Source of the DNA: Escherichia coli
GTDB lineage: Bacteria > Pseudomonadota > Gammaproteobacteria > Enterobacterales > Enterobacteriaceae
Reading direction: 5' to 3' (one strand)
Length of the DNA: 64,000 nt
NCBI RefSeq assembly: GCF_009931435.1
Contig: NZ_CP043414.1
Shown here: in pieces, positions 11,702 through 30,144 of the stretch
How positions within the stretch are numbered: the first letter of the stretch is position 1
How the letters are laid out: the number at the start of each line of letters is the position of its first letter
Notes under the pieces: generated by a model
What the model saw: only the letters and a program-made list of their open reading frames with translations
Databases searched by the model: none
Told to the model about the DNA's origin: nothing
Position numbers and translations under genes: made by a program

Positions 11702-13261
11702 TTACTTAATATCTTTCACGCGCATACCGTTGATCTGTTCATCCGTGATGGTATTACCCGCTTTAAAGTAATCAACCACCGCGTGATAAACGTAATAACC
11801 GCCCGTCGTATTGCGCGCTTTACCCTCGGTAAACGCGGTAAAACCATCTCCACCATCAGCAAGGAAACTCTGAGTGGCAATGTGGTAAACCGTCGCATCT
11901 TCAATCGGTTTGCCATTCAGAGTCAGCGAGATAACCCGCTGACCAACCGGCTTGCTGCTGTCGTACTTCATTTCCAGGCCTTTCGATACCTGTAAAACGC
12001 CATTACTCAAACTTGCGCCGTGTTCCATCAAACCGCGTAATTGTTTACCCGTGAGTTCCATCGTCACCAGTTCGTTGGGGAACGGGAAGGTACTGATGAC
12101 GCCACCCATCGTAATTGCACCCGCCGGGATCTCATTGCGAATCCCACCAGAGTTGGTTAACGCCAACTGGGTATTTTTACCCGCCGCTACCAGTAAAGCG
12201 TCCGCCGCCAGGTTCCCCAGGGATGCCGATTCACCATAGGCACGTTTTAATTCAACTGGCGATTGCGCCACCGTTTGCTGCACGACTTCATCCAGCTTTT
12301 TATTCCAACTATCAATCACCTGTTTTGTTTGCGCATCGGGCTTCCACTCGTCGGCGTAAAGGGTTTTAAGCTCGAAGTTTTTCACCGTAAAAGTGTGCGG
12401 TTTCTCTTTGAAGTCGAGAACCAGTTTACCCACATCAATCCCTCCGCTGTCAGTGGAAAGGATGAGCGTATTGCCGACTTTAATCGGTTCCGGCGTACCC
12501 ACATGTGCATGTCCGGTGATCAAAATATCCAGCCCTTTCACCTGACTTGCCGTCTGTATATCTTTATCCAGCGCGCGACGCACATCTGTGCCTCCCATAC
12601 TGGACTGGCGGGCCGGAACACCTTCGTGAATCAGGGCGACGGTCAAATCAACCTTGCCTTTGAGTTCATCGATATAACGTTGTAACCACTTAATTTCATC
12701 ACGCGCTTCAATACCCACTCGCGTGGCAGCGGATACCGTGTCATTAAAGGCAAATACTCCGTGCAAACCAATCACACCAATTTTCACGCCGTCTTTTTCA
12801 ATAATGGTATATGGCTTATCCCAGAATGATTTACTGCTGTTCTGATAAAAAATATTACCCTGCACAATCGGGAATTTTGCCTGACTCAACTGTAATAGGG
12901 TGTTGTCCCAGCCGTGATCAAATTCATGATTCCCTATAGTGACCGCATCGAACGGCATGGTATTCATAATATCGATAATCGCCTTGCCTTTAGTCAGGCT
13001 GCTGATATACGGCCCGGTAAAATAGTCACCCGCATCAAAAAACCAGGTCGCTTTGTTTTTAGCTTTTTCTTGTTTAACAAGCGTAGTGATATTTGCCCAG
13101 CCGCCAATATCCCGTTTACCGTCAGCAATCCACGGCACTTTATAAGGCTCTACATGTGCATGGAGGTCGTTGGTATAAATAATGGTGACATCTTTGGCGC
13201 AGGCCCAAAACGGCAGTGTTAATGCGATACCCGCAGCAAGCATTTTAATTTTCATAAACAA
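11702..13261 (-). CDS. Secreted bifunctional metallophosphatase/5'-nucleotidase family protein (paralog A)
   Basis: 519 aa; N-terminal signal peptide; calcineurin-like motifs DLHAHV, GDYFTG, GNHEFD, HEG, GHAHVG; C-terminal 5'-nucleotidase-like domain (UshA/CpdB architecture). Confidence 0.8.
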
Positions 13262-13313
13262 TCCCTTCCAGTGAGATAAAGGATTGCTACATTACGTTCT
13301 GAAAGGCTTTTTT

Positions 13314-13331
13314 ATGTGAGAATACTCACAT
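13314..13331. promoter_or_regulatory. Perfect palindrome ATGTGAG-AATA-CTCACAT in divergent intergenic region
   Basis: 18-bp dyad seen between the divergently transcribed nucleotidase A and Cys-rich protein genes; candidate operator. Confidence 0.3.
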
Positions 13332-13387
13332 CCAGAGGCGATAACTGTAGGACAAAATCAACGACCTTATGAAATCGTTGGTGATAT

Positions 13388-14515
13388 ATGTCAAATCTGT
13401 TTGCGATTAATGTCTGTAAAACGTTCGGTTGTCGAAATTTGGGATTGGCCTCATCGGAAGATTACAGTTGGCCAGACTATAAACTGGGTTTTCCGGCACT
13501 GCACTGCCAGGCATGCGGAAGTTACCCCCCTTTGTTTGATGAACAACAATTTCGTGACTGGTTGTCAGTTCACATGACTGCGTGTGCCATAGAAACAGGG
13601 CATTTTTGTCCATCATGCTATTGTAAAGAAAAGATTTTTTATGGCCACAACCCGCAGGGAACACAACGCGTTCAATGCCGTTCATGCAAAAAAGTCTGGA
13701 CTCCGAAACAGCAGCCAGCAAGAGAAATTACGTATCCCCAGTCCATTGAAACCGTTCAACTGTTCATGCCCTTTCAAGGAGCCAGCGCAGTACAAAAGCT
13801 CTATGTTTTAGTCAGTCTTGACGCCACTCGTGGCAACATCCTTCATCTCTCCACGAATTATACGCAACATCAGACAGGAGACAGTCTGCGGTACAGTTAC
13901 AGAGGCAATACAGAACCAACTGAGCACCATAGCGATATTGTGCAGAGGGTAGATATGCGTGAAGCGCAATTCTTGCGCCGGAGCCAGTTCGATGAAATTC
14001 AGTATGGCAGTGCTGTGCTCAAGCGCAACGGCAAGGGAGCCATACTACGCCCGGTTATCACGGCACACGGGCATTTCAGAATACTGAAAATCCGCTTTCC
14101 ACATGTCAAAACGCATATCATTTCACACGAATGTTTTCTGAGAGGCGCAATTATTACAGCCTGGGCAGATCAGTTCCGCCAACAACAAGGCGAACTTTGG
14201 TTCGTAGAAGAAGAAATCAGCGACCGTAACGCTGATATTCCCTGGCATTTTCAGGGAACGACATACCATGGTTGGTGGCAAAATCAGTGGCAACGCTGGG
14301 GGCAGGGGAATAACAGCAAGATGGTCTGCCTGCTCACAGGAGTCTCCTTAGAAAGGGGCGCAAATGTTTCTCTGGCAACCAGTCGTTGCTTTATCACATG
14401 GCTGACAGACCAACACGACTTTACCCAAAGCGCGTTATTATCCGCAGGTCGCGTAACGAAAATGCTGACCTCACTGGCGTTAAAATACAATGAATCGCTC
14501 ACTCCATCTTGTTAG
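13388..14515 (+). CDS. Cys-rich (putative zinc-ribbon) protein of unknown function
   Basis: 375-aa ORF; N-terminal clusters C-x2-C...C-x2-C (CQACGS, CPSCYC, CRSCKK) resembling zinc-ribbon modules; no confident family assignment. Confidence 0.55.
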   Translation: MSNLFAINVCKTFGCRNLGLASSEDYSWPDYKLGFPALHCQACGSYPPLFDEQQFRDWLSVHMTACAIETGHFCPSCYCKEKIFYGHNPQGTQRVQCRSCKKVWTPKQQPAREITYPQSIETVQLFMPFQGASAVQKLYVLVSLDATRGNILHLSTNYTQHQTGDSLRYSYRGNTEPTEHHSDIVQRVDMREAQFLRRSQFDEIQYGSAVLKRNGKGAILRPVITAHGHFRILKIRFPHVKTHIISHECFLRGAIITAWADQFRQQQGELWFVEEEISDRNADIPWHFQGTTYHGWWQNQWQRWGQGNNSKMVCLLTGVSLERGANVSLATSRCFITWLTDQHDFTQSALLSAGRVTKMLTSLALKYNESLTPSC

Positions 14516-14744
14516 TCAATACACTCGACAAACGACCATAAATTAATGGGATCACTATTTCTCATTTAATTAAATATATGAATGTATGACTGAAAAATAT
14601 AATCACAGTCAATGTTTAATTAATAACATTATTTGTTACTAAGATCACATAATACTTTCCTGACCTATGCTCTTATAAAAATAAGACACGGTGTTCCTTT
14701 TATTTAAATAATTCAACCAATGTAACAACCCCTATCAAGGAGGG

Positions 14745-16298
14745 ATGATGAGAACTGTATTTACGACTTTATCAGTCATATTCAGCGTGATGTTTTCTCA
14801 CAGTATACTAGCTCAGGACGTTACTATTTATTATACGAATGATATTCACGCACATGTCAATCCGGCAAAAATTCCCGCTGTTGATAAGAACAGACTTGTA
14901 GGTGGTATGGCTAATATTGCAGGCATCGTTAATGAAGCGAAGAAAAAAAACAAAGATGTCTTTTTCTTTGATGCAGGCGACTATTTTACCGGTCCGTATA
15001 TCAGTACCCTGACCAAAGGTGAAGCTATTATTGATATCATGAACACCATGCCCTTTGATGCGGTGTCCGTTGGTAATCACGAGTTCGATCACGGCGTGCC
15101 CAATATGGTATCTCAGTTATCAAAAGCAAAATTCCCCATTCTGCTGGGAAATATTTACTACACCGATACAAATAGACCAGTTTGGGATCATCCGTGGACC
15201 ATTATCGAAAAAGATGGTTTAAAGATTGGTGTGATTGGATTGCATGGTGCATTCGCTTTCTATGATACAGTCGCGGCAAAAGCACGTGAAGGCGTAGAAG
15301 CCAGAGACGAAATTAAATATTTAAATAAAGCACTTGCAGAATTAAAAGGTAAAGTCGACATTACCGTTTTGCTAATTCACGAAGGTGTTCCGGCGCGTCA
15401 ATCAAGCTTTGGTAGTAAAGATGTGGAGCGGCTACTACAGGCAGATATTGAGACAGCTAAAAAAGTGAATGGTGTTGATGTCTTAATTACCGGTCACGCA
15501 CATGTCGGAACACCGCAACCAATAAAAGTTAATAACACATTAATTGTATCTACCGATGCATACGGCACCGACATCGGAAAACTTGTGCTTGATTACAATC
15601 CGAAAACAAAGAAAATTGATAGTTATAATGGTGAGTTAATCACCATCTTTGCAGATCAATTTAAACCTGACACCATCGTTCAAAATACTATCGATAAATG
15701 GAGCGTAAAGCTTAACAAAATCACACAGGAAGTTGTCGGCCATTCTCCCGTAGTTTTAACACGTGAGTATGGCAGTTCTTCTTCTACCGGTAACCTTATT
15801 CTGGATGCAATGATGGAAAAAGCACCTGATGCCATTGCCGGATTTCAAAATAGCGGTGGGATGCGAGCTGATTTTCCTAAAGGTGATATCACACTGGGAG
15901 ATGTTATTAGCACATTCCCCTTTAATAATGACCTCATCGAGATGGATTTGACGGGCCGCGATCTCAAATCATTGATGACGCATGCAACCAATCTAACTAA
16001 CGGTGTGTTACAGGTTTCAAAAAGCGTTGCGGTTGTCTATGACAGCAAAAAACCACTCAACCAGCGGTTAATCTCTTTCACCATTAACGGCAAACCCGTG
16101 GAAGATAATCAAACATATCGTATTGCCACGCACTCCTTTTGTGCCAGTGGTGGTGACGGTTTTGAAGCATTTTTGAATGGAAAAAATGTGAAGACGATAC
16201 CGGGAACAACCTCGGCGGAATCTATCATCGATTATTTCAAAAATCATAAACCTGTCACCCCAGACTTAACTAAACGAGTCATGGACGTCGCCAAATAA
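14745..16298 (+). CDS. Secreted metallophosphatase/5'-nucleotidase family protein (paralog B)
   Basis: 517 aa; signal peptide; same metallophosphatase motif set as paralog A but most divergent of the three. Confidence 0.8.
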   Translation: MMRTVFTTLSVIFSVMFSHSILAQDVTIYYTNDIHAHVNPAKIPAVDKNRLVGGMANIAGIVNEAKKKNKDVFFFDAGDYFTGPYISTLTKGEAIIDIMNTMPFDAVSVGNHEFDHGVPNMVSQLSKAKFPILLGNIYYTDTNRPVWDHPWTIIEKDGLKIGVIGLHGAFAFYDTVAAKAREGVEARDEIKYLNKALAELKGKVDITVLLIHEGVPARQSSFGSKDVERLLQADIETAKKVNGVDVLITGHAHVGTPQPIKVNNTLIVSTDAYGTDIGKLVLDYNPKTKKIDSYNGELITIFADQFKPDTIVQNTIDKWSVKLNKITQEVVGHSPVVLTREYGSSSSTGNLILDAMMEKAPDAIAGFQNSGGMRADFPKGDITLGDVISTFPFNNDLIEMDLTGRDLKSLMTHATNLTNGVLQVSKSVAVVYDSKKPLNQRLISFTINGKPVEDNQTYRIATHSFCASGGDGFEAFLNGKNVKTIPGTTSAESIIDYFKNHKPVTPDLTKRVMDVAK

Positions 16299-16332
16299 AA
16301 TATCATTTATCAGTCTATTTATTTAACAAGGA

Positions 16333-17958
16333 ATGCGAATGAAAACAGTGCAGCGTACTTTACTTGCCGCAACATTGCTGACTATTTTTTCGGTTTCAGT
16401 CATGGCGCAGGATGTCACGATTATTTATACAAATGATCTTCACGCTCATGTGGATTCTTATAAAGTGCCGTATATCGCAGACGGAAAACGCGACATTGGC
16501 GGCTTTGCCAATATATCTACTTTAGTAAAACAAGAGAAAGCGAAAAATAAAGCCACCTTTTATTTTGATGCTGGAGACTATTTCACCGGCCCTTATATCA
16601 GCAGTCTGACAAAGGGCGAAGCAATAATTGACATTATGAATACCATGCCTTTTGACGCAGTATCAATCGGTAATCATGAGTTTGACCATGGCTGGGATAA
16701 TGCCCTGCGACAATTAAGCAAAGCGAATTTTCCTGTTTTATTGGGCAATGTTTATCATAAAGAGAGTGAGAAACCCTTCTGGAACAAGCCCTACACCATC
16801 CTGGAAAAAGATGGCATCAAGATTGGTATTATTGGGCTACACGGCGTATTTGCATTTAATGATACGGTCTCGGAGCTCTCTCTCCAGGGACTCGATAATG
16901 ACAATAATAACCGCTTTGATAAATCTTCCGAGACCCTTAAGAATCAGGGGATTGAAGCACGTGATGAAGTGAAGTATTTGCAACATTATATCGACGAGTT
17001 ACGTGATAAGGTTGACCTCACTGTGGCGCTGGTTCATGAAGGCGTTCCGGCGCGTCAGTCCAGCATTGGCAATACAGATGTTAGACGCGCTCTTGATAAA
17101 GATATTCAAACCGCTAGCAAGGTGAAAGGATTGGATATTCTGATTACCGGGCATGCCCACGTCGGAACGCCAGAACCAATCAAAGTCGGCAACACCTTAA
17201 TCCTTTCAACTGATAGTGGCGGTATCGATATTGGTAAATTAGTCCTTGATGTCAACCCTACAGCTCGTACCCATAAAATGAAGAGCTTTGAGCTGAAAAC
17301 AGTTTATGCCGATGAATGGATACCCGATCCAACGACACAAAAAGTTATCAATGGCTGGAATAAAAAACTGGCGGATATTGTACGCCAACCAGTGGGTGAA
17401 TCATCGATTGCATTAACTCGCGCCTATGGTGAGTCATCGCAACTAGGCAACCTGTTTACCGATGCAATGCTTGTCGCTGCTCCGACTGCACAGATTGCAT
17501 TGATAAACTCCGGCAGCTTACGTGCGGATATAAATGCAGGCACGATTACCTTTGGCGACATTACCAGTACATTCCCCTTCAAGAATGAACTTACTGAAAT
17601 GGATCTCAGCGGTAAGGATCTGCGTAACCTACTGGAACACGGGGCATCGCTTACCAATGGCATCCTGCAAATGTCAAAAGGCGCAGAAATGCGCTATACC
17701 CCGCAGAAACCAGTAGGTCAGCGCATAGTATCTTTTAAAATTAATAGTGAAGAGATCGTTGATACGAATATTTACCATGTTGCAACAACGACTTTCCTTG
17801 CACTGGGGGGCGATGGTTTTCTGGCATTCAAAGAAGGGAAAAATGTTCAGGTCCGCGCCGGAAATAACATGTCCGATGTCGTGATCGATTATTTGAAGAA
17901 AGGCCACAAGATTACGCCTGCACAGGTAAATGAAATGCGGGTGGACGTTAGCAAATAA
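16333..17958 (+). CDS. Secreted metallophosphatase/5'-nucleotidase family protein (paralog C)
   Basis: 541 aa; closely related to paralog A over most of its length, with a 20-aa insertion (ELSLQGLDNDNNNRFDKSSE...). Confidence 0.8.
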   Translation: MRMKTVQRTLLAATLLTIFSVSVMAQDVTIIYTNDLHAHVDSYKVPYIADGKRDIGGFANISTLVKQEKAKNKATFYFDAGDYFTGPYISSLTKGEAIIDIMNTMPFDAVSIGNHEFDHGWDNALRQLSKANFPVLLGNVYHKESEKPFWNKPYTILEKDGIKIGIIGLHGVFAFNDTVSELSLQGLDNDNNNRFDKSSETLKNQGIEARDEVKYLQHYIDELRDKVDLTVALVHEGVPARQSSIGNTDVRRALDKDIQTASKVKGLDILITGHAHVGTPEPIKVGNTLILSTDSGGIDIGKLVLDVNPTARTHKMKSFELKTVYADEWIPDPTTQKVINGWNKKLADIVRQPVGESSIALTRAYGESSQLGNLFTDAMLVAAPTAQIALINSGSLRADINAGTITFGDITSTFPFKNELTEMDLSGKDLRNLLEHGASLTNGILQMSKGAEMRYTPQKPVGQRIVSFKINSEEIVDTNIYHVATTTFLALGGDGFLAFKEGKNVQVRAGNNMSDVVIDYLKKGHKITPAQVNEMRVDVSK

Positions 17959-17970
17959 TAAAAAAATTAT

Positions 17971-18007
17971 AATGCCATTCATTCACTGAATGGCATTATT
18001 TTTCTCT
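17971..18007 (+). terminator. Hairpin plus T-run between nucleotidase C and the tsx-like gene
   Basis: AATGCCATTCA-TTCAC-TGAATGGCATT followed by ATTTTTCTC. Confidence 0.45.
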
Positions 18008-18036
18008 AAATCAACAATAGATAATGAGATATATTT

Positions 18037-18897
18037 ATGTGTATAAAAAAGCACGGGATAGCTTTATCGATTCTATTAATACCTTGCATTGGAAACGCTC
18101 AGGAAATTAAAAGTGAGGAAGGCTGGTTACATCAAAGCTTGAATGTCATTGGTCGCACAGACTCTCGCTTTGGCCCAAGGCTGACTAACGACCTCTACCC
18201 TGAATATACTGTAGCAGGAAGAAAAGACTGGTTTGATTTTTATGGTTATGTTGATCTACCAAAATTCTTTGGCGTCGGCAGTCACTATGATGTTGGGATC
18301 TGGGATGAGGGCTCACCACTATTTACGGAAATAGAACCTCGGTTTTCCATTGACAAATTGACCGGATTAAATCTTGCGTTCGGCCCTTTTAAAGAATGGT
18401 TCATTGCAAACAACTATGTCTATGATATGGGTGACAACCAGTCATCCCGGCAAAGTACATGGTATATGGGGCTTGGTACAGATATCGACACGGGTCTACC
18501 AATTAAGCTTTCTGCCAATATATACGCCAAGTATCAGTGGCAAAACTATGGTGCCGCTAATGAAAATGAATGGGACGGATATCGATTCAAAATAAAATAT
18601 AGCATTCCTCTTACCCATTTATTCGGAGGGCGATTGGTATACAATAGTTTTACTAACTTTGATTTTGGCTCCGATCTTGCGGACAAATCACACAATAATA
18701 AACGAACCAGTAATGCTATTGCTTCAAGCCATATCCTTTCCCTGCTATATGAACACTGGAAATTTGCATTTACACTACGTTATTTTCACAACGGTGGACA
18801 ATGGAATGCTGGGGAGAAAGTTAACTTCGGAGATGGTCCATTTGAATTAAAAAACACAGGATGGGGAACCTATACTACTATTGGTTATCAATTTTAA
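18037..18897 (+). CDS. Tsx-family nucleoside-specific outer-membrane channel paralog
   Basis: 286 aa; signal peptide; long collinear similarity to E. coli Tsx ([72 protein letters not shown]-terminal GY-F). Confidence 0.85.
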
Positions 18898-23974: not shown

Positions 23975-24298
23975 ATGATGAAAAAAATAATTCCCGCCGT
24001 AGTCTGTTTGTTGCTTTGTAGTTGCACGACCTTTCCGCAAGCTGTCGCTCCGGCAGGGAAAGATTACGAAAGCCCGCTCCCCGCAAGGACTGACGCCAGA
24101 TACTTTCTGTCCATGGCTGCTTTTCGCATCTTACGTCTTAACCCTGCCTTGAATACCTTATCATTCGTTAAAATATTAATAGCGATGTGCCGTATCCCTG
24201 AAAATAATTCTGCGGCGTTTCCTCTTCGTATTTTGCAGTCGTCTTCATTCATTACCACGTCCAGACGCCAGTGCAGCTTATTCTCCACGTGCCAGTGA
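23975..24298 (+). other. ORF with lipoprotein-like N-terminus running into the antisense strand of the H-repeat element; probably a truncated or chimeric gene
   Basis: MMKKIIPAVVCLLLCSCTTF lipobox-like start 3 nt after yiiX stop; downstream part is antisense to the transposase pseudogene. Confidence 0.25.
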
Positions 24299-25199
24299 TT
24301 TCGGATCGCTGTGGCGAACTTTTCTGCGGTTAAATCAGCAGAACTGATATAATATCTGACCGTCATTTCTGGCTCTTTCTTTTGTTCTGCTATTATTGAC
24401 CGAAAGGAGAATGCCACGCATAATTTCTTCAGTCCTTTCCATTCAAACGTGAAATCAATAAGTTCATCACGGACATCGCAAACAATATGAAGACGGATTT
24501 CTTCTCTGCCGTGACTCTTTTCACTCATTGCGTAACTGTCATGCTCTGGATTATTTAATTCTTTCAGCGGAAATTTTTCCTCGAAGGCTTTATTTAGCCG
24601 CCCCTGATTTCCTTTTACAGAGAATAAATAATCACCTCCCTGTTTTTGTATCTTCTCTGCAATATCTTTCTGGCAACCCATCGCATCAGTTGTGATAATT
24701 TTTCCTTTATATCCAGCATGTTAAGAAGTTCAGGGATAGCAGTAATCTCATTGGATTTCTCATCCGTCTTGATCTGTCCGATGACCAGACTGTGCATTGT
24801 TGAGAACGCACTAATGACATGAATCGCTCCCCTGCGGCGACTCTTGTCATAAGAATGCCGGAGTGTTTTTCCATCAATTGCGATGACGTCTTTATCATCT
24901 GAAGTATGGCAATCTCGCATCCAGTTAATAAAGCACTCGTGAAATTTTGAAGGACTGATACAGGATACAACTCTGGCGATGGTATCGTGAACAGGAATAC
25001 CATTTTCAAAATCACCATATTGTTTTAAAAAATCGCGATGTGCTTCCCCAAAATCCTCTATATGTTCCCAGCCTTCTGCACCAGAAATAACGGCACAAAT
25101 AGTCAACAGTAGAATATCCGACAATTTATGTTTCACTTTTGCAGGATTGTCTGCAATCGGGAATAACAGAAATATGTTCCATCAATTTTTTAAGTTCCA
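24064..25199 (-). pseudogene. ISAs1-family (H-repeat-associated) transposase, disrupted by frameshifts
   Basis: Three pieces ([11 protein letters not shown]... from 25199; 173-aa ORF 24615-25136; 205-aa ORF 24064-24681) are jointly collinear with the ~378-aa E. coli H-rpt protein (YhhI-like) as recalled. Confidence 0.8.
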
Positions 25200-25350
25200 T
25201 TCTTTTCTCCTTAATTATGTAAGGAGTATTTGATCATGTATAAGCAATAAAAAAACAGCTTCAGGCAATGAGGAATATCTCAATTTTTAAACATAAAATG
25301 CGAATTGTTTAGTACAAAAAAGCAGCGTTAAGTGATCTTTCCCTGTCGGC

Positions 25351-25665
25351 ATGTTGACCACTGACGAATGGGGTAGTTACGCTAGAGAGTTACCAAAGGA
25401 GAAGCATCTGACTGGTAAGATTTTTACTCAGCATATTGAGCGTAACAATCTGACCCTGAGAACCCGAATCAAACGTCTGGCCCGCAGAACCATCTGTTTC
25501 TCGCGTTCTGTAGAACTTCATGAAAAAGTCATCGGTGCTTTTATCGAAAATATATGTTCTACTAATTGGAGTCATCACCCTTCTGATGAGCTTTCCTTGG
25601 ATGATTACCAGACTGAATACATAGCCAAAGATTTTTACCTCATTCTGCTTTTTTTTCTCAAATGA
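25351..25665 (+). pseudogene. IS1-family InsB-like transposase C-terminal fragment
   Basis: TDEWGSY...FTQHIERNNLTLRTRIKRLARRTICFSRSVELHEKVIG parallels the IS1 InsB C-terminus (TDGWPLY...[38 protein letters not shown]); the N-terminal catalytic part is missing. Confidence 0.6.
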
Positions 25666-25958
25666 CATATATTATATTTTATATCATATTCATAGGCATA
25701 TGACATTCCCCCGCCCCCCATTATGTCATTGTGGGTTGATGTTGGGCTTTCATAAAAAAATACATCTTTTTTTGAACTAGCATTAATTATATTTACTTTA
25801 TATATTAAAATATTTTCTCCATCTGGAAATATTTTAGCCACACAATATAAAGCAGCTAAATCCGAATTACTTAAAAATATATTGTCATCACTCATAACTC
25901 CAGCCATTAAATGACTGGAGACTAAAGCAAGGAAATAACAACATTGTATTACCTTCAT
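25635..25958 (-). CDS. Candidate Rhs immunity protein
   Basis: ATG 2 nt after the rhs stop (TAA-a-ATG coupling); 107 aa from MKVIQCCYFLALVSSHLMAG (hydrophobic, signal-like N-terminus); strongly AT-rich. Confidence 0.5.
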   Translation of the reverse strand: MKVIQCCYFLALVSSHLMAGVMSDDNIFLSNSDLAALYCVAKIFPDGENILIYKVNIINASSKKDVFFYESPTSTHNDIMGGGGMSYAYEYDIKYNICHLRKKSRMR

Positions 25959-25959
25959 T

Positions 25960-28900
25960 TTAATTACTCCCTTGCCTGATAATTGTAACTCCATTCCCTT
26001 TAGCTTTGGGATTATATTTTAGATAGGTGTTATTTGGTGTTCCCAAGTAACTACTGTATTCTTTTTTTCCCATTCCATTCATATAAGAATTCGTTAAATC
26101 TTTGCTTGAAAAATTTAGACTATCATAAACATCATTTTCTTTTGTTACTTTATTTCCTTTATCGTCAGAGTAAAAACCGTGAGTGTGATAATCGCCTACT
26201 CTCTCTGAACCTTCAGGGCATTTTATATTTCGCAAGTCTACACTATCATTATCATTTGAACTTATCGGATTCATGGGGAAATATTCACCTTGCTTCTTAC
26301 ATATTAGTCCACCATATTCTTTATTCTCGTTAATTGATTCTCCATTACACATTGCCAATGCAAATATTCCAATATCATCTATATTTTTTGATTTAAATTC
26401 ATATAATCCTAATGGATCCATGCCATTCACCGGGCTCAGCGGATATGTATACAGGTTCCATCCCCCCTTCAGCCCAATCGGATCCTGAGTGATATACCGC
26501 CCCTGCAGCGGGTCATAATAGCGGTGGCGGTTGTAATACAGGCCGGACTCCTCATCATACTGCTGACCCGGCAGGCGGATGAGCTGCTGCAGCTGGTGCG
26601 GGTTCTCTTCATTCAGCAGGTTGCCCCATTCATCGTATTCTGCGCACCATTCTGTTGCCCCTTCCGTGCTGATAAGCACCAGCGGCAGGCCGCGATGGTC
26701 GCAGTGGTACAGGTGGATTTTTCGCGCCGGCGTGTACACCGGTTCCATCTGGTTTTGCATCTGCGCCACCGTCAGGCCGCACGATGCCAGCCAGCGGCGG
26801 CTTTCCTCACTCACCCGGTCAGCCAGGATTTCACTTTCCAGCCGGTCGAGCATCTGCACCAGCACCGGCGGGAACACCACACTGCCACCGTCTTCGCCGC
26901 CGGACTGCTGAAGCGCATCCGCCAGGCTGCGGCGCTGCGTTTTCGCCAGCTCACCGGTGGCGGTTTCGACCCTGATGAGTGGCGTGAAGCTCCCCGGCTG
27001 ATAAACCGTCTGGATGCGGGTTCTGTCGTTCTGTATCGTGGTCAGCCGGTCGCCGTCCCAGCCGTACCAGGTCACTTCCGGTTTCCGTGACAGCGACATC
27101 CAGCCCGTCAGGTCCCGTTCACGCCGCCACACCCGTTTTGCCACCCTGCGGCCCAGCGGGTCGTAAAGATAGCGACTTTCGACCAGCGGCTCTGCATATT
27201 GTGTCCGCGTGTAGTGCACCAGCCGGTGCCGGCTGTCGTAATGGTACCGGTGAGTCCGCTCATCATCCGTGCGGATAACCCCTTCCGGGATGAGGTCGGT
27301 TTTCTCTGTCAGCCTGCCGTGACGGTCATACCGGTAAAGATAGTGCGCGTCACGGGCGATACGGTTATCCGGCCACATGCTGAGGGTGCTGTCCGGGTGC
27401 AGCTCCGGGTCGGGCAGGCGGTTACCTGCCGGGTCCGTGGCATACGGGATGCGGATATCCAGATTCGCTGCGGTGGTGTGAACGCCGGTCAGCCTGCCGG
27501 TGGTGCTGTAGCTGTAACTCCGGGTCTGGCGCGGGCTGCTGATGCGAATGAGTTCGCCGTTGTCGTTCCAGGTGTAATCGCGGTCATACTGCAGGCTGTT
27601 CAGGTGCTGGCTCTGTAACTGCCCGGCAGGGGTGTAAGCGGTGGTGAGTTCATAACGGCCGAAGCTGCGCAGCGTTTCCCGGTGCAGGCGGTCGCGGGTG
27701 AAATCCACCAGCGGTGTGTCGCCGAGTTTCATCCCTGCCAGGTAACCACTGCCATAAGTCAGCCATTCCACGGCGGGCAGGCTGTCCGGTATACAGCGGT
27801 TCGCCAGCCCCTGCGCGTTGTACGCATGTCTGGTTTCATGCTGCCAGAGCAGTGCTTCCGTCTGCGGGTGATGCACCGTCTGGCGCTCACCGGTCAGGCG
27901 GCCTTTCTCATCATACCCGTAATGCACCGTCACCCGGTGCCCTTCGCTGAGATGGCTGATGCCTGTCAGCCAGCCGCGTTCGTCGTACCGCCACTGTTCT
28001 GCGGTTTCACCATTCACCGTTCGCTGCGTGATGCGGTCTGCTTCGTCATAGTGCCAGTGGGTGACCAGTCCCTCATCCTCGCTGCGGATAAGTTTGCCGG
28101 TCAGGTCGTGGTGATAACGCTGTGTGCGGCCGTCAAAGCCGGTTTCCTGTATCAGCCGGTCGAGTACATCGTAACGGAAGGTGGTGTGGCTGCCGTTTTC
28201 GTTTGTCAGGCGGATGACCCGTCCTGCAGCATCGTATTCCATACTGCGGGTCAGCCCGCCCTGCGTGGTACGGACGGCCTTTCCCCACGCATCGTACTGT
28301 GCCCCGTATCTGCTGCCGTCCGGGGCAATGACGGTGGTCAGGTCACCGGCGGCGTTGTATTCATACCGCGTTTCATGGCCCTGCGTGTCTTTCACCGCAA
28401 TTAACTGTCCATGGCTGTCGTATGCGCGGCACTGGCTCAGGCCTTCCTCGCGGTGCACCGCCGTCATCTGCCCGAAGCGGTCATGGTCATAACGGGTCTG
28501 GTAGCCGGAACAGTCGGTGAAGGTCAGCAACTGACCGTAACGGCTCCACGTCATGGTTTTCCGGCTGCCGGTGGCATCTTCCGTTGCGCAGGGGAAGTCA
28601 CTGTGTGGATTATCATAACGGTAGCGGATGATATCGCCGTCAGGGGCAGTTTCCTGAATCAGACGGCCGGATTCATCATATTCCCGGCGTATTTCCAGCC
28701 CGTCAGGCCCGGTGGCTGACGTTAACTGGTTGTGGTGGTTATAGTAAAACGCCGATGCCCTGCCATCCGGCGTGGTGATGCGCGTGATGAGTCCCGTCAC
28801 CACATCCGGGCTGTATTCTGTTGTCCGGCCTGCGGCATCCGTCTGTGTCCTGAGCCTGCCCACCGCGTCAAACTGACTCTGCGTGACGCTGCCGTCCGCG

Positions 28901-30144
28901 TGTTCCTTTTTCACCACCCGCTTCAGCCCGCCTTCGCCTGCGGTATGCAGGACTTCATGGCGGTCCAGGCTGTCGGTGATGGTGATGCGGTCTTTCTCAT
29001 ACTGATACGTGTAGCTTAAGCCTGCCGGGTTTAGCTGTTCTGTCACCCGCCCGTCGCTGTCGTAACGGTAACGGATTTCCGGCCGGCCCGTGTGACGGTG
29101 CGCCACCATCCGGCCCCGGTATTTATCATCGTAAGTAAAGCTGCGCACCTGTGTATTGCTGCGGTCATACACCGCCGCCAGTTCGCCGCGCGGCGTCCAG
29201 CCATAGCGCACCAGCGGCGTGGCTGGCAGGTTGTCCGGGTATTCCGGGTCGTGCGTCAGCCACACGGCAGACAGACGGATACCGTTGTCCCGGCCATATT
29301 CCGTGTAGTCCGGCAGGGTATCAGGAAAAGCGGACTGTTCCGCCCCGCCGGAAGAGGCCTGCTGCCGGGCCTCTTCTGCCCGCTGCGCCTGCGTGGTCAG
29401 TGCCAGCCGGAAGTGACGCCCGGCACCATCCGTCACGCCGGTGATTTCGCCGCTGAATTCACCGGCGGCTTCGCGGTGAAACGTCTGTGTGCGCCCGAAG
29501 CGGTCCACCAGCCCGGTCAGTACCCGGTACGGCGGCAGCGGCGCGGGCAGCACCTCATCCGCCTCCGGCACCCGCTCACACCAGCCGAGTACCCACCACG
29601 GCCCCTGCGGACTGTTCGTCGCCAGATAACGATGCGGACTCAGGCGAAGCTCTTCCGGCAGCGCCTGCCAGAGTGCGGCCAGCCGGTGACCTTCATCCAG
29701 TCTCAGGACGCCGCCGCGCACCAGCCAGAGTGACTCGCTGCGGCTGTAACCGTCCTCACCGGGAAACAGGTGCTCAAAATACAGGCTTCTGCCGCCGTTA
29801 TCACTGAGTATCAGTGTGTTATCGCGCAGCTGTAAGCGGATATCCGCAGGCATTTTCCAGCCGGGGCCGAGAATACCCACCGGCGCGGGCGTTTTTGTCC
29901 GGTAACTGCTGTACGTGCGGGAGAGGATGAACGGCAGCGGTCCGGGCAGGGCAATGTCTGTCTCGCCGGGAAGGACCTTTGCACCGAGCAGGGGATTGAC
30001 CGGATGGCCGGACGTCACCCCGCCGGGGCACACCGAACAGGCCACGCCGGTGGGGGCACCAATACGTACCCCGGCTGAACCCTGAACAATGCTACCGCCA
30101 TACTGCGTCATGTCGCCCTGACGCGCCGCCGGTTTTCCGCTCAT
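25960..30144 (-). CDS. Rhs-family protein with variable C-terminal toxin domain
   Basis: 1394 aa; N-terminus [23 protein letters not shown] typical of E. coli RhsA/B/C-class; YD repeats; DPLGL boundary motif then a 147-aa AT-rich C-terminal tip. Confidence 0.9.

Follow-up and report, generated by a model that had tools for sequence, protein, structure and literature searches.

A Tox-JAB-2/DUF4329 toxin tip of an Escherichia coli Rhs protein and its tightly coupled immunity candidate with a putative export leader

In the Rhs family, the motif DPLGL is an aspartyl autoproteolysis site at which the C-terminal tip is freed. In the characterised toxin–immunity pairs of type VI secretion systems (T6SSs), the immunity protein is located where the toxin acts, and in the periplasmic pairs Tae/Tai and Tse1/Tsi1 (Tae3-Tai3 structure 4kt3) an immunity protein exported by a signal peptide blocks a hydrolase. 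Here we describe an rhs gene with its toxin tip and the open reading frame (ORF) that follows it, dsORF-f3, in a stretch of 64,000 nt of the Escherichia coli chromosome (RefSeq assembly GCF_009931435.1, contig NZ_CP043414.1), which is called the window below. Our overall reading, an Rhs-borne Tox-JAB-2 toxin with an exported immunity protein and action on the cell envelope, is given a probability of about 0.55.

The domain DUF4329 was described as Tox-JAB-2 by Zhang et al. 2012 (PMC3482391), who assigned it a deaminase-like/JAB fold with E, H[ST]H, S, D as its signature and family 2 of the Imm-NTF2 immunity proteins as its partner. They noted that the residues of the ubiquitin-tail tunnel are not conserved in Tox-JAB-2 and proposed, as explicit speculation, a nuclease role by analogy with RadC; the nuclease activity of RadC is itself a prediction. 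Later genome and in-silico papers use the name 'RNase' for DUF4329 with reference to Ma et al. 2017 (Environ Microbiol), and an eLife paper, in its introduction, puts Tox-JAB-2 among the characterised domains with the same attribution. According to a review that covers Ma et al. 2017, Rhs-CT1, CT3 and CT5 alone were tested experimentally and CT5-CT8 are 'putative' RNases. No enzymatic or toxicity test of Tox-JAB-2 was found in the literature searched, in which Ma et al. 2017 is represented through a review and citing papers only. The present locus was analysed in an in-silico study of enterohaemorrhagic E. coli (EHEC) as RhsB (z5488)/RhsBI, in which DUF4329 was noted together with a model resembling a proteasome-lid subunit.

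The rhs gene and its toxin tip comprise the following features of the window.

30144..25960 including the stop codon, minus strand: intact rhs gene, 1394 amino acids (aa), from the ORF list and the NCBIfam models for RHS_core, YD repeats and Rhs_assc_core
26418..26404, minus strand: DPLGL, end of the Rhs-associated core, from the sequence and from the RHS_core and Rhs_assc_core models, which stop at residue 1247
26403..25963, minus strand: toxin tip, 147 aa, a single Tox-JAB-2/DUF4329 domain in DNA of about 30% G+C, followed by the stop codon TAA at 25962..25960
26317..26319, minus strand: codon of E29 (NKEYGG), predicted catalytic Glu of the JAMM site, invariant in 26 tips
26179..26187, minus strand: codons of H73-T74-H75 (GDYHTHG), predicted HxH zinc ligands of the JAMM site, invariant in 26 tips and fitting the H[ST]H of Zhang et al.
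26098..26109, minus strand: codons of S99-S-K-D102, predicted SxxD element of the JAMM site, D102 invariant and S99 present in at least 90% of 26 tips

That the module is an Rhs polymorphic toxin with a swapped tip is secure. The NCBIfam model RHS_core (NF041261) matches with 2620 bits (cut-off 2000) over aa 1-1247 and ends exactly at DPLGL; Rhs_assc_core (TIGR03696) spans aa 1170-1247, with a boundary that reads ...NGMDPLGL and continues with YEFK. YD_repeat_2x is matched at E 1.6e-38 and, towards the N-terminus, Pfam DUF6531 over aa 46-123 at E 4.5e-18. The G+C content is 0.57-0.69 over the core (26500..29800) and 0.28-0.32 where tip and next ORF lie (25600..26349). This break coincides with the core/tip boundary of the family and is not a chance fluctuation. 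The swapped tip of 147 aa in AT-rich DNA behind DPLGL had been proposed in the initial annotation and was confirmed, with a drop in G+C from about 0.6 to about 0.3 and with every element on the minus strand and in the place assigned to it there.

The same annotation had called the tip's family unrecognised, which did not hold. The tip matches Pfam DUF4329 (PF14220) with E 3.7e-16 and 59.6 bits over model positions 6-108 of 116, and this match identifies it as a member of Tox-JAB-2/DUF4329. The locus is carried by 40% of the complete E. coli genomes, and RefSeq already lists the downstream ORF as 'RHS element protein dsORF-f3'. For comparison, 30 loci of tip relatives were gathered from a species-level genome collection and 26 tips were aligned, which come from Proteobacteria, Acidobacteriota, Planctomycetota, Myxococcota and one spirochaete. 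None of E29, H73, T74, H75 and D102 varies across them, and at least 90% have S99. The suggestion that GDYHTHG might belong to a His-based active site was borne out: conservation and the structure model identify it as the predicted HxH zinc-ligand pair of a JAMM site. The distance from HxH to SxxD is 23 residues in this tip and varies from 12 to about 30 across the family, compared with the canonical 7. The AlphaFold2 model computed from the 26-tip alignment shows a JAB/MPN fold with a predicted local distance difference test score (pLDDT) of 93.9 and a predicted template modelling score (pTM) of 0.90. The whole 147-aa tip is one predicted catalytic domain, with no additional segment for entry or translocation. 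Fold and conserved residues together make a zinc-dependent hydrolase the most likely activity.

Further database searches with the tip returned little. A sequence search of the PDB gave chance-level matches only, and no solved structure of the Tox-JAB-2/DUF4329 family was found. NCBIfam held nothing meaningful for the tip or the downstream ORF. Tox-JAB-2 forms in phages are mentioned by Zhang et al. 2012 (PMC3482391); PHROGs and a tblastn search of phage genomes with a consensus-like tip gave no match. The tip has three cysteines, C19, C35 and C62 (window positions about 26347, 26299 and 26218; MCN, ICK and CP), which are kept in the enterobacterial and Acidovorax tips and absent from the other clades; a disulfide could form among them, as would suit the periplasm.

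Directly behind the tip lies the candidate immunity gene.

25971..25967, minus strand: GGGAG, ribosome-binding site that lies within the final codons of rhs, 8 nt upstream of the dsORF-f3 ATG, read from the sequence
25635..25958, minus strand: dsORF-f3, immunity candidate, 107 aa, ATG at 25958 and stop at 25637..25635, from the ORF list and the sequence, syntenic with the Salmonella and Enterobacter pairs
25899..25958, minus strand: codons 1-20 (MKVIQCCYFLALVSSHLMAG), putative leader, Sec-type or possibly a signal anchor, from its n/h/c layout and a property kept in orthologues
25638..25898, minus strand: predicted mature domain (aa 21-107) of cystatin/NTF2/PepSY-like fold, a helix packed against a sheet of four antiparallel strands
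25707..25718, minus strand: codons of G81-G84, invariant GGGG loop between strands 2 and 3, from alignments, RG[GS] in distant homologues, low pLDDT

The exact 107-aa sequence in the window is WP_202600855.1. Its ATG follows the rhs stop after a single spacer base, and the coupling that the initial annotation had read from this spacing was substantiated by the GGGAG placed 8 nt before the ATG and by the same arrangement in Salmonella and Enterobacter. Databases hold three starts for the ORF (25895-25994, minus strand), giving 119, 107 and 86 aa. The 119-aa start, ATG 25994, overlaps rhs by 35 nt and represents a cluster of 1460 members. The 107-aa start, ATG 25958, is the RefSeq choice and the sole one with a well-spaced ribosome-binding site. 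The 86-aa form (WP_181049484.1) starts at an internal ATG at codon 22 with a poorly spaced GGAG only 2 nt upstream.

dsORF-f3 itself has no Pfam match even at E<=10 and no NCBIfam match. A word-indexed search returned E. coli copies only, and phmmer, run exhaustively against 1.84 billion cluster representatives, gave 27 matches including orthologues. Those at about 50% identity are P0066, P0067 (Enterobacter) and P0068, and those at about 30% are P0073 (Salmonella) and P0074 (Hafnia/Obesumbacterium). The Salmonella and Enterobacter orthologues each stand behind an orthologous DUF4329 tip, which is 54% identical in the former and 72% in the latter, and the one-base gap is the same. An alignment of seven sequences has GGGG (81-84), Y87, Y89, C98 and M106 invariant. 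The AlphaFold2 model of dsORF-f3 (pLDDT 73, pTM 0.61) places a low-confidence N-terminal helix off the core, followed by a disordered linker and then by a helix and four antiparallel strands. Such a cystatin/NTF2/PepSY-like fold is much used by peptidase inhibitors, and the low pLDDT of the GGGG segment is consistent with a flexible loop in the model. A conserved disulfide C39-C98 was considered as a marker of the periplasm and dropped, C39 being missing in the Salmonella and Hafnia orthologues.

The comparison extends to the more distant loci. In most of the 26 other loci of the 30-locus set, the ORF just downstream abuts or overlaps the toxin stop. Most share a helix, a Y-x-V-x-V hairpin, the RG[GS]/GGGG loop and two more strands, and the final residue is Arg or Lys in 27 of 29 proteins of the immunity family (...SRMR, ...YYSR, ...NFIR, ...SYNR), usually with a hydrophobic or aromatic residue two positions before. 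When leader-trimmed groups were compared with hhalign, the enteric group matched the Rahnella/Superficieibacter/Acidovorax group at 97%, the latter matched the group of Alteromonadales and others at 95%, this group matched the leaderless short forms at 96% and the Xanthomonadales forms at 90%, and the Xanthomonadales forms matched the leaderless Burkholderiales forms at 75%; the alignments being small, these percentages are rough. One homologue, P0078, a UniRef 'NTF2 fold domain-containing protein' reached by profile chaining, has a marginal match to Pfam Imm-NTF2-2 at E 0.22. A Pfam scan of 21 aligned members, a set to which P0078 does not belong, gave none at E<=0.1, and a PDB sequence search with the immunity profile gave chance-level matches only. 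As judged from these profiles, the downstream ORFs of most loci are one family. We conclude from the sequence comparisons that dsORF-f3 represents an unmodelled, divergent branch of the immunity family that Zhang et al. paired with Tox-JAB-2. Its adjacency, its co-variation with the toxin and its leader property point to dsORF-f3 as the immunity protein, which would be exported and would neutralise the tip.

The N-terminus of dsORF-f3, described earlier as signal-peptide-like, has the n/h/c layout of a classical leader: MK, then VIQCCYFLALV, then SSHLMA^G, with L at -3 and A at -1. The hydrophobic core is 11 residues long, with a mean Kyte-Doolittle value of about 2.1 over 10 residues. This and the following leader calls rest on classical n/h/c criteria, a crude rule and comparison. 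The layout recurs in six orthologue clusters (E. coli, P0066, Enterobacter, P0068, Salmonella and Hafnia/Obesumbacterium), so that the resemblance is kept as a property in the orthologues. Over their first 20 or so residues the order is always M-[KR], a hydrophobic run and a short polar stretch with small residues at its end, yet hardly any sequence is common to the leaders, against 26-50% identity between the mature domains. The Salmonella and Hafnia orthologues lack an internal Met from which a leaderless form could start. The crude rule flagged 18 of 32 immunity candidates and missed three more obvious ones; applied to 53 window ORFs as controls it flagged 14, most of them recognisably exported or membrane proteins (YiiX, Tsx, Sbp). 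Among the 26 non-E. coli loci, about 16 have a leader or a lipobox, nine have none and one is ambiguous. Lipoboxes occur in the homologues of Rahnella (LASC), Luteibacter (AMMGC) and Sorangium (ATAGC). When the toxins were placed on a rough neighbour-joining tree, the clade of enteric and Acidovorax toxins was leader-positive in 7 of 7 cases. Of the four PAAR-fused toxins, three are leader-negative and one (L017) is ambiguous; the Rhs toxins of Burkholderiales are leader-negative as well. What looks like an upstream leader in P0084 and P0085, relatives of the L012 immunity gene, was discarded, as it is the toxin's invariant YLGTPSG tail read in the alternate frame.

Its conservation as a property marks the leader as a targeting segment that was appended and is under selection in Enterobacteriaceae, and it is probable that dsORF-f3 is exported in E. 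coli. Given this selection, the most probable place of work for the E. coli immunity protein is the periplasm or the inner membrane's outer face. A survey of Salmonella with SignalP found that immunity proteins of nuclease effectors lack signals and that those of peptidoglycan-targeting effectors mostly have a signal or a transmembrane segment. In conjunction with the rule that T6SS immunity proteins reside where the toxin acts, the leader and this split favour an envelope target and an (iso)peptidase-like hydrolysis over the RNase label. Other pointers to the outside of the cytoplasm come from Zhang et al. 2012 (PMC3482391), whose survey describes secreted Tox-JAB-2 versions and has its sole immunity lipoprotein in the sister family Tox-JAB-1, and from the Luteibacter toxin L024, in which a signal peptide of its own is apparent by eye in the N-terminal sequence. 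A periplasmic target in E. coli, suggested earlier from the N-terminus of the small ORF, remains plausible: in favour is the leader kept in all enterobacterial orthologues and in many distant homologues, against it stand the leaderless homologues that accompany other Tox-JAB-2 toxins. For the narrower statement that the lethal target lies in the E. coli envelope, we consider the odds to be even.

The sequence of events could then be as follows. The Rhs shell (aa 1-1247) would enclose the 147-aa tip and free it by autoproteolysis at DPLGL, as known for the family, and delivery would presumably occur by a T6SS, again from family knowledge. With its JAMM zinc site of E29, H73, H75, S99 and D102, the tip would act as a zinc-dependent hydrolase, on an envelope substrate with a peptide or isopeptide bond and not on cytoplasmic RNA or DNA. 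The translationally coupled dsORF-f3, with its Sec-type leader in Enterobacteriaceae, would neutralise the toxin, and in E. coli the two would probably meet in the periplasm. Speculatively, the RG[GS]/GGGG loop and the terminal Arg or Lys of the immunity protein might occupy the active-site groove as a pseudo-substrate. The idea arises because the loop recalls the ...RGG tail gripped by JAMM isopeptidases and because a basic residue at the C-terminus, its carboxylate being free, brings to mind product-like inhibition of zinc peptidases. The full proposal, in which Tox-JAB-2 toxins are JAMM-type (iso)peptidases, periplasmic at least in Enterobacteriaceae and blocked by the immunity loop or the C-terminal Arg/Lys as pseudo-substrate, is tentative and has the odds against it; within it, the peptidoglycan stem or cross-link or the link between Lpp and peptidoglycan may be the substrate.

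Several observations weigh against action in the envelope. The main difficulty is posed by leaderless immunity homologues. They occur with Rhs-fused Tox-JAB-2 in Burkholderia and Duganella, with PAAR-fused toxins in Acidobacteriota, Planctomycetota and an alphaproteobacterium, and in Zophobihabitans. They are genuine, as the upstream frame is closed by stops or is non-hydrophobic, and their existence means that the domain folds without a leader. Either the substrate is reachable from both compartments, or the sites of action are clade-specific, or neutralisation takes place en route, which is conceivable for Rhs-encased toxins because the producer is shielded by the shell. Leader status moreover flips between close relatives in Acidobacteriota, with none in L014 and one present in L018, which means that the substrate is accessible on both sides of the membrane or that the site of neutralisation does not report the site of action. 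In E. coli itself, the ATG at codon 22 could give a cytoplasmic isoform. The Salmonella survey lists signal-less CdiI-domain proteins as the immunity genes of the DUF4329 Rhs proteins of Salmonella pathogenicity island 6; these probably represent other ORFs or another family. The prokaryotic JAB enzymes known so far are all intracellular, and Zhang et al. (PMC3482391) favoured a RadC-like nuclease role. As to delivery, no vgrG, eag or T6SS genes adjoin rhs and no T6SS genes lie within the window, and the Pfam PAAR_motif match at the Rhs N-terminus is marginal (E 0.2, aa 2-20); delivery by a T6SS is therefore an assumption.

Alternatively, the toxin might act in the cytoplasm as a RadC-like metal-dependent RNase or DNase, with a leader that does not work or that places the immunity protein in the periplasm or at the membrane solely to intercept incoming toxin. 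Besides the RadC analogy of Zhang et al. (PMC3482391) and the unconserved residues of the tunnel for ubiquitin-like (Ubl) tails, such a toxin would be in line with the leaderless, presumably cytoplasmic immunity homologues of both Rhs-fused and PAAR-fused Tox-JAB-2. The PAAR-fused toxins in particular have no Rhs shell, and a need for cytoplasmic immunity there suggests cytoplasmic toxicity. The later in-silico papers, too, label DUF4329 an RNase; however, no experiment was found in support, the activity of RadC is itself predicted, and CT5-CT8 are called 'putative' RNases in the review cited above. No match of the tip to a characterised nuclease with a cytoplasmic immunity protein emerged either, an outcome that the initial annotation had named as decisive against its proposal; for the family a nuclease role is only predicted. 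In the Salmonella survey, immunity proteins of nucleases never carry signals, and it is hard to see why a useless leader would persist in all enterobacterial orthologues, including those whose mature domain is only 26% identical. We therefore regard a cytoplasmic nuclease as unlikely, though it is the strongest of the competing explanations. The RNase label is unsupported and fits poorly, in the enteric clade, with the conserved export leader on the immunity protein.

The mixed leader status of the family would also be explained if the leader were an uncleaved signal anchor that holds dsORF-f3 on the periplasmic face of the inner membrane, with a membrane-proximal substrate present on both sides, such as lipid-linked peptidoglycan precursors; relatives could then have cytoplasmic or exported immunity. 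Uncharged stretches of 18-22 residues in L011, L008, P0066 and L002 and the lipoboxes of the Rahnella, Luteibacter and Sorangium homologues speak for it. The E. coli hydrophobic core of 11 residues is short for an anchor, though, with a plausible LMA/G cleavage site next to it, and there is no direct evidence for any substrate. As this explanation overlaps with export to the envelope and differs from it in detail only, we consider it improbable as a separate account. Least probable is a decaying or silent element in which the small ORF is not an immunity gene. IS1 and ISAs1 debris immediately downstream, the absence of adjoining vgrG, eag or T6SS genes and a broken tip copy in Citrobacter (L007) would fit decay, yet the 1394-aa rhs frame and the catalytic residues are intact, tip and ORF are 95-99.6% identical in 2170 complete genomes, and orthologues in other genera keep the coupling, the leader, the GGGG loop and the C-terminal basic residue. 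An Rhs toxin with exported immunity and envelope action is therefore the reading that we prefer.

With regard to its distribution, the module is known and already annotated as a common E. coli Rhs tip of the Tox-JAB-2/DUF4329 family with dsORF-f3. A megablast search (query 25600..26450) found tip and ORF in 2170 of 5426 complete E. coli genomes (about 40%), always on the chromosome and at 95-99.6% identity. The carriers include O157:H7 and O55:H7, and close relatives exist in Salmonella, Enterobacter and Hafnia. In Citrobacter amalonaticus (L007, 2432-2920) the orthologous tip is broken into a 60-aa frame and a separate 87-aa frame and is a pseudogene. A 2.2-kb contig binned in a 'Lachnospiraceae' metagenome-assembled genome (L004, SFGN01000258.1) has the rhs tip of E. 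coli together with dsORF-f3, with an identity of 99%, and is almost certainly a mis-binned E. coli fragment.

About 40% of the complete E. coli genomes carry the module, and genome papers repeat the RNase label for it; knowledge of the compartment of action would correct or confirm the annotation. If the tip were a periplasmic (iso)peptidase, no JAB/MPN enzyme before it would have been known to work outside the cytoplasm, and a toxin present in about 40% of E. coli strains would gain a mechanism. If the RNase label is right, this is an ordinary, well-distributed Rhs toxin.

The genes around the module show the following additional features.

25351..25665, plus strand: IS1 transposase (InsB-like) remnant, from the translation, in the ORF just past dsORF-f3, which is only partly IS1-derived
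24064..25136, minus strand: ISAs1-family (H-repeat) transposase in two overlapping ORFs, matching positions 1-140 of NCBIfam model NF033564 in one and 146-314 in the other
11702-13261, minus strand: UshA-like paralogue
13388-14515: unassigned ORF of 375 aa in the same cluster
14745-16298, plus strand: UshA-like paralogue
16333-17958, plus strand: UshA-like paralogue
18037-18897: Tsx-type nucleoside channel, 492 bits

The window is E. coli chromosome with the order metL-metB-metJ-yiiX, then an island, then rpmE-priA. In O157:H7 LSU61 a frameshifted IS1 lies at the same place, in the order rpmE / rhs / ORF / IS1 / yiiX; in other strains the frameshifted IS1 lies directly beside yiiX instead. The ISAs1 transposase, which is probably frameshifted, sits between the IS1 remnant and yiiX and is typical baggage of Rhs elements. 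A scan of 25200..27200 for promoters and terminators gave no enrichment over shuffles, and an internal promoter as in rhsF could not be inferred from it. Beside metL lie the three paralogous, signal-bearing genes for UshA-like 5'-nucleotidases/cyclic phosphodiesterases (517-541 aa). In LSU61, metL is directly followed by a small hypothetical gene and then metF, without the nucleotidase cluster; on this comparison, the nucleotidase/Tsx cluster (11702-18897) looks like a strain-variable nucleoside-scavenging island.

The initial annotation had also suggested looking for the tip on other delivery systems, and the JAB domain does occur on several. In Acidobacteriota, Planctomycetota and an alphaproteobacterial metagenome-assembled genome (L010, L014, L016, L017), the JAB domain is fused to PAAR via a poly-Gly linker and has no Rhs shell. 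The N-terminal region of the JAB toxin contains an HExxH motif (...LLAHELMHVMQQ...) in Bradyrhizobium (L031, L032) and is glycine-rich and hydrophobic in Pseudoalteromonas (L020), while in Luteibacter (L024) a Sec signal and then a short Rhs-core remnant precede the JAB domain. The immunity gene that follows L011 and L013-L018 has a tandem domain duplication (170-194 aa), with or without a leader.

Compared with known systems, the E. coli tip agrees with Tox-JAB-2/DUF4329 as described by Zhang et al. 2012 (PMC3482391) in its signature, its C-terminal position in Rhs and its small NTF2-like immunity partner, and is a member of that family. With the JAMM/MPN+ metallo-isopeptidases (Rpn11, BRCC36, AMSH, archaeal JAMM1, bacterial Cap3 and BilC) it shares the catalytic Glu, the HxH, the Ser and the Asp. 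It differs from them in the HxH-SxxD spacing, which is 23 here (12 to about 30 in the family) and 7 there, in having no known ubiquitin-like partner, no Ubl gene at the rhs locus and, according to Zhang et al. (PMC3482391), no conserved residues of the Ubl-tail tunnel, and in serving as a secreted toxin, in E. coli probably outside the cytoplasm. Like dsORF-f3, Imm-NTF2-2 (PF15631) is the immediate downstream neighbour of Tox-JAB-2 and has a small alpha+beta NTF2/cystatin-like fold; however, of the Tyr and Trp conserved in that family, the Trp is absent from dsORF-f3, which has no Trp at all; among the enteric members, neither Y87 nor Y89 varies. The published description of Imm-NTF2-2 does not include a leader, a GGGG/RG[GS] loop or a C-terminal Arg/Lys.

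Tox-JAB-1/Imm65 of Bacteroidetes (Zhang et al. 2012, PMC3482391) is likewise an Rhs-borne JAB toxin, whose immunity protein is a lipoprotein with a signal peptide; compared by description, it belongs to another JAB clade (NxxxE, HxH, S, D), has another immunity family and is confined to Bacteroidetes. The EHEC pair RhsF-RhsFI (ECs0604; PMC7618764), which was recently shown to bind small RNAs and is expressed from a promoter internal to rhs, resembles the present one as an orphan-like Rhs pair in E. coli, but its locus, toxin and immunity protein are different; the 2025 RhsFI paper, considered as a source on dsORF-f3, was set aside as it deals with that other locus. The exported immunity proteins of Tae/Tai and Tse1/Tsi1 finally provide the parallel for neutralisation in the periplasm, whereas the toxins of these pairs are small cargo amidases with unrelated folds that have peptidoglycan as substrate, and the toxin here is a JAB domain encased by Rhs.

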